From the IMG/VR virus record IMGVR_UViG_2531839667_000007: 36,911 nucleotides of DNA; one strand, written 5' to 3'. How positions within the stretch are numbered: position 1 is the first letter of the stretch; the number at the start of each line of letters is the position of its first letter. A model generated the notes under the pieces. That model ran no database searches and was not told the DNA's origin. It saw nothing but the letters and a program-made list of their open reading frames with translations. The position numbers and the translations under genes are program-made. Source of the DNA: a virus (taxonomy: Duplodnaviria > Heunggongvirae > Uroviricota > Caudoviricetes). This document shows, in pieces, positions 11,794 to 12,630 of this stretch.

Positions 11794-12043
11794 AATGTCT
11801 CACAATTCAGGCGGTTGACTGTTGTCTGGTTTGCGGGGAGTTTGTTAAAAGAAACTGGCATGGTGAATCCCCCTGTGCGGAGGGGCAATCAGCGAGTAGG
11901 TATATGGGATAATCGCGGATTCAGGTGCTGGTACTGAATTCACCGGGAGGCACCCGGCACCATGCAATGGCACATAGCGCCACTCTCCAGCCCCTCTCCG
12001 GAGGGGCTGTTTATATTGATTTTGTCAGATGTGAGTAAACTCC

Positions 12044-12379
12044 TTATGGACTTTGCTGTTTTAGTCCATAAGGACATATTTGCAGAGTGCAACGGTTATT
12101 AAAGCATTCATTCAATACGTTATCTGTATTTGTAGGGCATTCCTGGCTGTTTTTGATTAAATTCCAGAATGTTTTATTGAATGGTACTACGTTGTAAATG
12201 GTTACAGGTAGCACTTTGTTATTGAGCATGATACCTGTGTGAGTCAGTGTAAATATACTTTCAGGAGGTAAGAAAGCATCCGATTGATACCAGATTATTA
12301 ATTTTATTTTACTCCATATGACTGAAAAAGATATTCCGCATGATGGCTGGATAACTGTATCAATCACAATCCACTTCAT
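12044..12379 (-). CDS. hypothetical cargo (moron) protein, AT-rich, opposite strand to late genes (111 aa)
   Basis: Track ORF; ATG preceded by AAGGAA at 6 nt; AT-rich unlike flanks; family not recognised. Confidence 0.5.
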
Positions 12380-12630
12380 TTAGTTTCCTTGTTTATGCCT
12401 TGCTGGTGTTGTTCTGAAAAGTATAAATGATAATTTTGAATGTAAACCATAGGGCAGAATTATTTTTCTGATGTTGTTTATTATTTATTTAAATGCAGGG
12501 TGGTTTATACCTCGTCTTGTAGTTTATCCATGCATATCTGCTTTATGATGAGGTTTTTATTTAAGGTGTGGTTTTGTGTATTACATGTCAGGTATCTTAA
12601 AGAATTATTTTTTAGATGGTGGAAAGAACC

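Follow-up and report, generated by a model that had tools for sequence, protein, structure and literature searches.

A cargo gene of a lambdoid prophage that is almost certainly iraL, encoding an RssB anti-adaptor of the IraM family

The prophage analysed here, a stretch of 36,911 nucleotides of Caudoviricetes DNA (IMG/VR record IMGVR_UViG_2531839667_000007, referred to below as the window), carries a minus-strand ORF of 111 codons in an AT-rich segment of its late region, and the question raised by this locus is what the ORF encodes and from where it is transcribed. An earlier note, made from the sequence alone, had described the ORF just as it is found here, with a good Shine-Dalgarno sequence (AAGGAA at 12390..12385, 5 nt before the ATG), had held that its product matches no recognisable family, and had put it forward as a candidate for an undescribed accessory function, for example in defence or abortive infection. 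We find that the ORF is almost certainly iraL, a cargo gene of prophages that has a separate promoter and encodes an RssB anti-adaptor. The function of iraL is already known, having been characterised in 2014, and the gene is an ordinary one in E. coli prophages.

Identity and distribution of the gene

The ORF product passes the NCBIfam model for IraM (NF007393) with 162 bits where the cut-off is 121 (E = 4.7e-48), the match taking in protein residues 1-110 and model positions 1-113 out of 114, and it matches the IraM chain of PDB entry 8TWD with an E value of 9e-32. Amino-acid identity to IraM of E. coli K-12 is 62%. RefSeq labels the protein “anti-adapter protein IraM” (WP_000871291.1) on genomes with 100% identical DNA, and the view that it belongs to no family is therefore withdrawn. 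Nor is its function undescribed, because the product is identical at all 111 of 111 residues to the characterised IraL of CFT073, the WP_000871291.1 copy that is encoded in a lambdoid prophage at potB (PMC4045071). The CFT073 gene, formerly ycgW, is c1429 (PMC4045071; locus tag from PMC12890032), and it was first found in a genomic-library screen (Hryckowian et al. 2014, mBio; PMC4045071). The 32-mer published from 5'RACE of iraL matches the CFT073 locus exactly (L003:33803-33834), and its location just upstream of the identical gene confirms that this locus is iraL. For the IraL subtype, the criterion of Hryckowian et al. is that the coding region be at least 95% identical to CFT073 iraL throughout. 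The ORF of the window falls within this subtype, with only two differences in the coding sequence, the DNA from 11788 to 12698 being 96.5% identical to that of CFT073 overall.

A dN/dS ratio of 0.17 between iraL and K-12 iraM indicates purifying selection on a real protein. In PHROGs the product belongs to phrog_4407, a family listed as being of unknown function. Scanned against Pfam, none of IraL, K-12 IraM and two distant homologues had a match even with E values of up to 10; the explanation is that the local version of the model, PF11183.13, covers PmrD only. Precomputed labels use version 15, and there IraM homologues carry the PF11183 tag.

The earlier note had made its proposal depend on conservation of the ORF in related prophages, and such conservation is found on a large scale. 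Of 5426 complete E. coli genomes, 1446 (~27%) carry the iraL coding sequence, in one to three copies each, with an identity of at least 99% in 1010 genomes and of 95-99% in a further 409, i.e. at least 95% in 1419. The deposited phage vB_EcoS-640R1 also carries iraL, with the same neighbours (tRNAs, STnc100, leftward iraL and DUF1737). In a profile search the IraM family extends across the Enterobacteriaceae, including Salmonella, Citrobacter, Enterobacter, Cronobacter, Intestinirhabdus and Dryocola, with all members labelled IraM.

Promoter, cassette borders and neighbouring genes

The features of the locus, and those elsewhere in the prophage that bear on it or were found beside it, are collected in Table 1. 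Counting from the published start site, the hexamers of the iraL promoter would be TTTACA (-35, 12446..12441) and TATACT (-10, 12425..12420), with a spacer of 15 nt between them and 7 nt from the -10 hexamer to the start site. CFT073 and the window share both hexamers. In the 71 nt that precede the iraL ATG they agree at 67 positions, so that the window has the IraL-specific sigma-70 promoter and start-site region with four SNPs; two of these are in the 5' UTR, inside the window equivalent of the 5'RACE 32-mer. Of the SNPs, one is at +4 and another lies between the ATG and the Shine-Dalgarno sequence. The 15-nt spacer is suboptimal, and a generic promoter scan missed the iraL promoter because it required a spacer of 16-18 nt. 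The region upstream of iraL has a GC content of 0.30, and it could be open to silencing. In a fur mutant of CFT073, IraL reportedly goes up (PMC7157518). No credible Fur box was found upstream of iraL, the best match being 12/19, and therefore any effect of Fur on IraL is probably indirect. IraL is also reported to rise on a shift from 23 to 37 degrees C (PMC12890032).

Table 1. Positions of iraL, its control elements and other features of the prophage in the window
Feature	Position	Strand	Description
DicF RNA	1455-1506	-	Rfam; early region
sok antitoxin RNA	7083-7258	+	Rfam; early region
Q-like antiterminator of the prophage	9268-9831		phrog_753
tRNA genes (three)	11503-11752
Terminator-like site	11767-11784		After the last tRNA; separate from the STnc100 terminator
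STnc100-family sRNA gene	11829-12018	+	Rfam RF02076, 132.4 bits (gathering score 47), E = 4e-29, full-length model
STnc100 terminator stem	11988-11996/12001-12009		9-bp perfect stem, 4-nt loop, T-rich tail
iraL cassette	12009..12630	.	AT-rich insert of ~620 bp; STnc100 terminator stem on the left, DUF1737 ATG on the right
Inverted repeat	12041-12052/12063-12074	-	12 bp, perfect, 10-nt loop; over the last codons (PYGLKQQSP) and the TAA stop
iraL coding sequence	12044..12379	-	111 aa, ATG start; almost certainly an RssB anti-adaptor of the IraM family
iraL 5' UTR	12380..12412	-	33 nt; start site 12412, from the CFT073 5'RACE 32-mer (PMC4045071)
iraL sigma-70 promoter (putative hexamers)	12420..12446	-	Hexamers placed relative to the published start site
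PhoP-box-like direct repeat	12475-12491	+	Both half-sites also in CFT073
DUF1737 fragment	12631..12849	+	Pfam PF08410, E = 1e-16; first late-operon gene right of the cassette
DUF6645 ORF	12846-13499	+
ISEc48-like element	14457-15792		IS3 family, 1336 bp, TG...CA ends, two overlapping minus-strand ORFs

The borders of the cassette can be placed by comparison with phages that are without iraL. In PhiR5_1, PPwrbA_EH2201 and Sakai Sp5 the alignment with the window breaks off at ~12008 and resumes at 12630, which delimits the insert, and in its place these phages have ~225 bp of intergenic DNA. The segment had been called markedly AT-rich, and so it is: GC content computed directly is 0.328 over 12009-12630, as against 0.524 over 11400-12008 and 0.537 over 12631-13499, and in windows of 300 nt it is 0.31-0.36 over 12000-12700 and 0.50-0.58 in the flanks. 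The DUF1737 gene begins at 12631 and not at 12616, according to both the PGAP start and the homology boundary. With a promoter of its own, a terminator-like 3' end, a deviant GC content and presence or absence between otherwise collinear phages, iraL has the features of a moron; its description as a self-contained cargo gene on the opposite strand of a lambdoid late region holds, given the promoter and the clean borders against iraL-less phages.

The order of the interval from the tRNAs to the DUF1737 gene had been read correctly, with one gene overlooked, that of an STnc100-family sRNA directly to the left of the cassette. The stem-loop noticed at 11989-12025 is real, with its stem at 11988-12009, and what had been missed is that it is the terminator of this sRNA; it folds with -20.8 kcal/mol (z = -5.1), and none of 200 shuffled sequences did as well. 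Members of the STnc100 family occupy the same relative position in the loci L003-L007. Over the window equivalent of 11848-11973, the PGAP annotation of related RefSeq genomes has a pseudo-CDS fragment on the other strand, which is probably an annotation artefact. The tRNA gene at 11503-11578 is called Met(CAT) by ARAGORN, as against tRNA-Ile (ileZ type) in RefSeq.

The locus of CFT073 is like that of the window in its order of genes (tRNA-Ile/Arg/Arg, STnc100, leftward iraL, DUF1737) as well as in the promoter and start-site region. It is unlike the window in that its STnc100 gene is separated from the tRNAs by an additional ~620 bp, which contain a DUF3927 ORF, and the window in turn differs from CFT073 in the deleted esterase-like gene and the ISEc48-like insertion that lie downstream. 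The esterase-like gene is represented by two ORFs, both of which are pseudogene fragments according to PGAP: the DUF1737 ORF matches positions 1-58 of the 634 in phrog_143, and the DUF6645 ORF positions 421-630. In Stx phages a large gene of the phrog_143 family comes after STnc100; relatives have it labelled as a SASA family carbohydrate esterase. From these partial matches it follows that the gene downstream of the cassette is an internally deleted remnant.

The interval had also been likened to the one that holds stxAB in Stx phages, and at a coarse scale this is right; at a finer scale the positions differ, stx2AB of Sp5 standing before STnc100 and iraL after it. The gene order in Sp5 is Q, tRNAs, stx2AB, STnc100, AsxR (leftward) and esterase, and it is AsxR that is like iraL in lying on the minus strand in the slot after STnc100, within the same late-region hot spot. 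They are different kinds of element: AsxR is an RNA of 53 nt, stxAB is a toxin operon transcribed along with the late genes, and iraL codes for a protein and has a promoter to itself, without sequence similarity to either. As a secondary reading, leftward elements that regulate host networks and are expressed in the lysogen may have settled repeatedly in the slot after the STnc100 terminator; iraL and AsxR of Sp5 would be the examples.

It was also considered whether the sRNA beside iraL might be StxS, which would have made of the two a module for boosting RpoS. StxS is an RpoS-activating RNA that arises from the early-terminated PR' transcript, between PR' and tR' and 5' of stx (PMC7547250). 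STnc100 in Sp5 lies 3' of stx2B, and the identification was rejected. No link between STnc100 and RpoS was found in the searched literature.

Several elements further from the cassette were recorded. The ISEc48-like element is flanked by a direct duplication of 16 bp, ATATTATCAATATGCG, with a total span of 14441-15808, and the duplication is unusually long for the IS family. Strain Z1323HEC0355 has a 99.9% identical prophage in which the site is empty and the 16-mer is present in a single copy, and an IS at this site is absent from all complete E. coli genomes in the collection. The DicF and sok RNAs are found in the early region, as in the CFT073 potB prophage, and in related annotation sok is accompanied by hokD.

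Predicted fold, cysteine-rich tail and 3' end of IraL

Structure prediction, one of the checks that had been proposed for this ORF, agrees with the family assignment. An AF2 model of IraL built from a 50-sequence family alignment has a pLDDT of 83.9, with residues 1-80 at 87-96; it replaces an earlier run on 18 sequences, nearly all of them from Escherichia, which had reached 58.6. In Foldseek the model superposes best on 8twd_A (TM 0.91, rmsd 1.2 A), followed by the PmrD structures 4HN7, 2JSO and 2RQX (TM 0.71-0.73). Over residues 1-78 the model has the PmrD-like antiparallel beta-barrel, a beta-hairpin and one alpha-helix, and the predicted structure agrees with the fold published for IraM (PMC10844676). 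PmrD resembles IraL as a small beta-barrel with a helix and as a connector that binds the receiver domain of a response regulator. It is unlike IraL in its sequence (14-20% identity), in its target, which is phospho-PmrA rather than RssB, and in having no tail with four cysteines. K-12 IraM (YcgW/ElbA, b1160) is like IraL in family, fold, the four C-terminal cysteines and RssB as its target.

Of the 15 positions at which IraM touches RssB in 8TWD (clusters I-III and Pro66), IraL has the same residue at 11, including all five of cluster I, which faces the receiver domain of RssB. The four substitutions (T13S, L75I, H63N and I64V), conservative or semi-conservative changes, are in the clusters that contact the C-terminal domain and the linker of RssB. 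Judged from these residues, the pattern would fit the reported binding of IraL to RssB's N-terminal domain only. The contact residue W22 is without conservation beyond the IraM/IraL group of Escherichia.

The part of the protein that is best conserved in the family is its C-terminal tail. Among 50 intact family members from Escherichia, Salmonella, Citrobacter, Enterobacter, Cronobacter and other genera, 20-98% identical to IraL, the only invariant columns of the alignment are C81, C97 and C102, and C92 and P103 are conserved in at least 90%. The tail motif can be written C-P-G-N-x7-8-C-x4-C-x4-C-P-Y/F-G, and it corresponds to residues 81-105 of IraL (12065-12139 of the window, minus strand). 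The sole crystal structure of IraM, 8TWD, covers residues 1-78, the tail having been removed; its authors call the tail less conserved and flexible, and report full-length IraM to be unstable and insoluble (PMC10844676). In the AF2 model of IraL the tail has a pLDDT of 51-71 and forms a small beta-bridge. We tentatively suggest, at somewhat less than even chances, that the tail of IraL and IraM is a Cys4 module, either metal-binding (probably zinc) or redox-sensitive, that these anti-adaptors require for folding, stability or regulation; no mention of such a module for the IraM family was found in the searched literature. With four cysteines so nearly invariant, a functionally important part of the protein would seem to be missing from the truncated structure that was published.

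At the 3' end of the gene, the inverted repeat over the stop codon is real as had been noted, with a length of 12 rather than 11 bp and at 12041-12074 rather than 12029-12063. Its arms are 100% complementary, it folds with -17.5 kcal/mol (z = -5.7), and it is probably a 3' mRNA hairpin or a weak terminator. IraL differs from K-12 IraM by four extra C-terminal residues, QQSP. The loop and the distal arm of the hairpin encode this IraL-specific extension and the stop codon, and the homology to K-12 iraM stops at 12060, inside the loop. An origin of QQSP by simple readthrough or change of a stop codon was ruled out, IraL and IraM diverging directly after Lys107.

Alternative readings and the action of IraL on RpoS

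Since the product is of the same protein family as IraM, the gene might be read as a functional orthologue of K-12 iraM, induced through PhoP/PhoQ on Mg2+ starvation, and not as one of the constitutive, log-phase IraL type; a direct repeat resembling a PhoP box (TGTTTA-TTATT-TATTTA), 62-79 nt upstream of the iraL start site, points the same way. This repeat is a single match with one mismatch and is no better than chance, with 0.57 matches expected and at least one found in 45 of 100 shuffled sequences, so that it was rejected as a PhoP box. Homology to the K-12 iraM DNA (70.9%) is confined to the coding region, 12060-12381, and outside this stretch none was found that would represent the PhoP-dependent promoter of iraM; it follows that the promoters of iraL and iraM are unrelated, in agreement with the published difference in their regulation (PMC4045071). 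The two proteins are also reported to act differently: K-12 iraM is PhoP-regulated and induced by Mg2+ starvation, and its product contacts both domains of RssB, whereas IraL acts in unstressed log phase and in two-hybrid assays binds the N-terminal domain only (PMC4045071; PMC10844676). K-12 iraM adjoins the e14 element, outside any lambdoid late region, unlike iraL. The literature separates the two by sequence, context and regulation (PMC4045071), and both the protein and the promoter of the window are of the IraL type, which makes an iraM orthologue very improbable.

Still less credible, to the point that we give it hardly any weight, is a gene for anti-phage defence, abortive infection or a toxin, as the earlier note had proposed in part. 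What could be brought forward for it is that iraL, as AT-rich cargo oriented leftward, sits in a hot spot of prophages beside the stx site, and that phrog_4407 is entered in PHROGs as unknown. Against this, the product matches none of the families of PADLOC-DB at E <= 1, its predicted fold is that of the IraM/PmrD connector proteins, and the identical protein has been demonstrated to have a different function, that of an RssB anti-adaptor (PMC4045071). Rather more plausible than either, and nevertheless improbable, is that iraL is intact and silent in the source strain, as a passenger of a decaying prophage. The prophage is indeed damaged, by the internal deletion of the esterase-like gene and by the IS element, and the SNPs in the promoter and UTR and the low GC content upstream could be taken to point to silence. 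However, a gene with its own promoter is independent of the integrity of the phage, and the hexamers of this promoter are intact; purifying selection is strong and conservation wide; and the cassette of CFT073 is expressed despite a nearby IS200 and a truncated DUF1737 gene (PMC4045071).

We therefore return to the gene as iraL of the CFT073 type. For the CFT073 protein, binding to RssB in a two-hybrid assay, an approximately two-fold longer half-life of RpoS and the transcription start site have been shown, and iraL also acts in Shigella sonnei (PMC4045071). In the window, iraL would be transcribed leftward from its sigma-70 promoter, opposite to and independent of the phage late operon, and because this promoter is its own it can be expressed in the lysogen; late transcription running antisense through the gene may interfere. 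RssB is a response regulator that serves as an adaptor, bringing the stress sigma factor RpoS to ClpXP for proteolysis. IraL, with its PmrD-like beta-barrel and cysteine-rich tail, would bind RssB and block it, RpoS would be stabilised in exponential growth, and the general stress response would be raised. Going by the identity of the proteins, the same action on RssB and RpoS may be expected in the host of the window. The rpoS gene is itself often mutated in E. coli.

The gap between phage and bacterial annotation at this locus, where phrog_4407 is “unknown” and NF007393 is named and characterised, could mislead phage-centred screens. The gene is enriched in uropathogenic E. coli and in Shigella, as a host-fitness factor associated with extraintestinal pathotypes, and it shows a prophage rewiring the general stress response of its host, by means of RpoS stabilised in growing cells.
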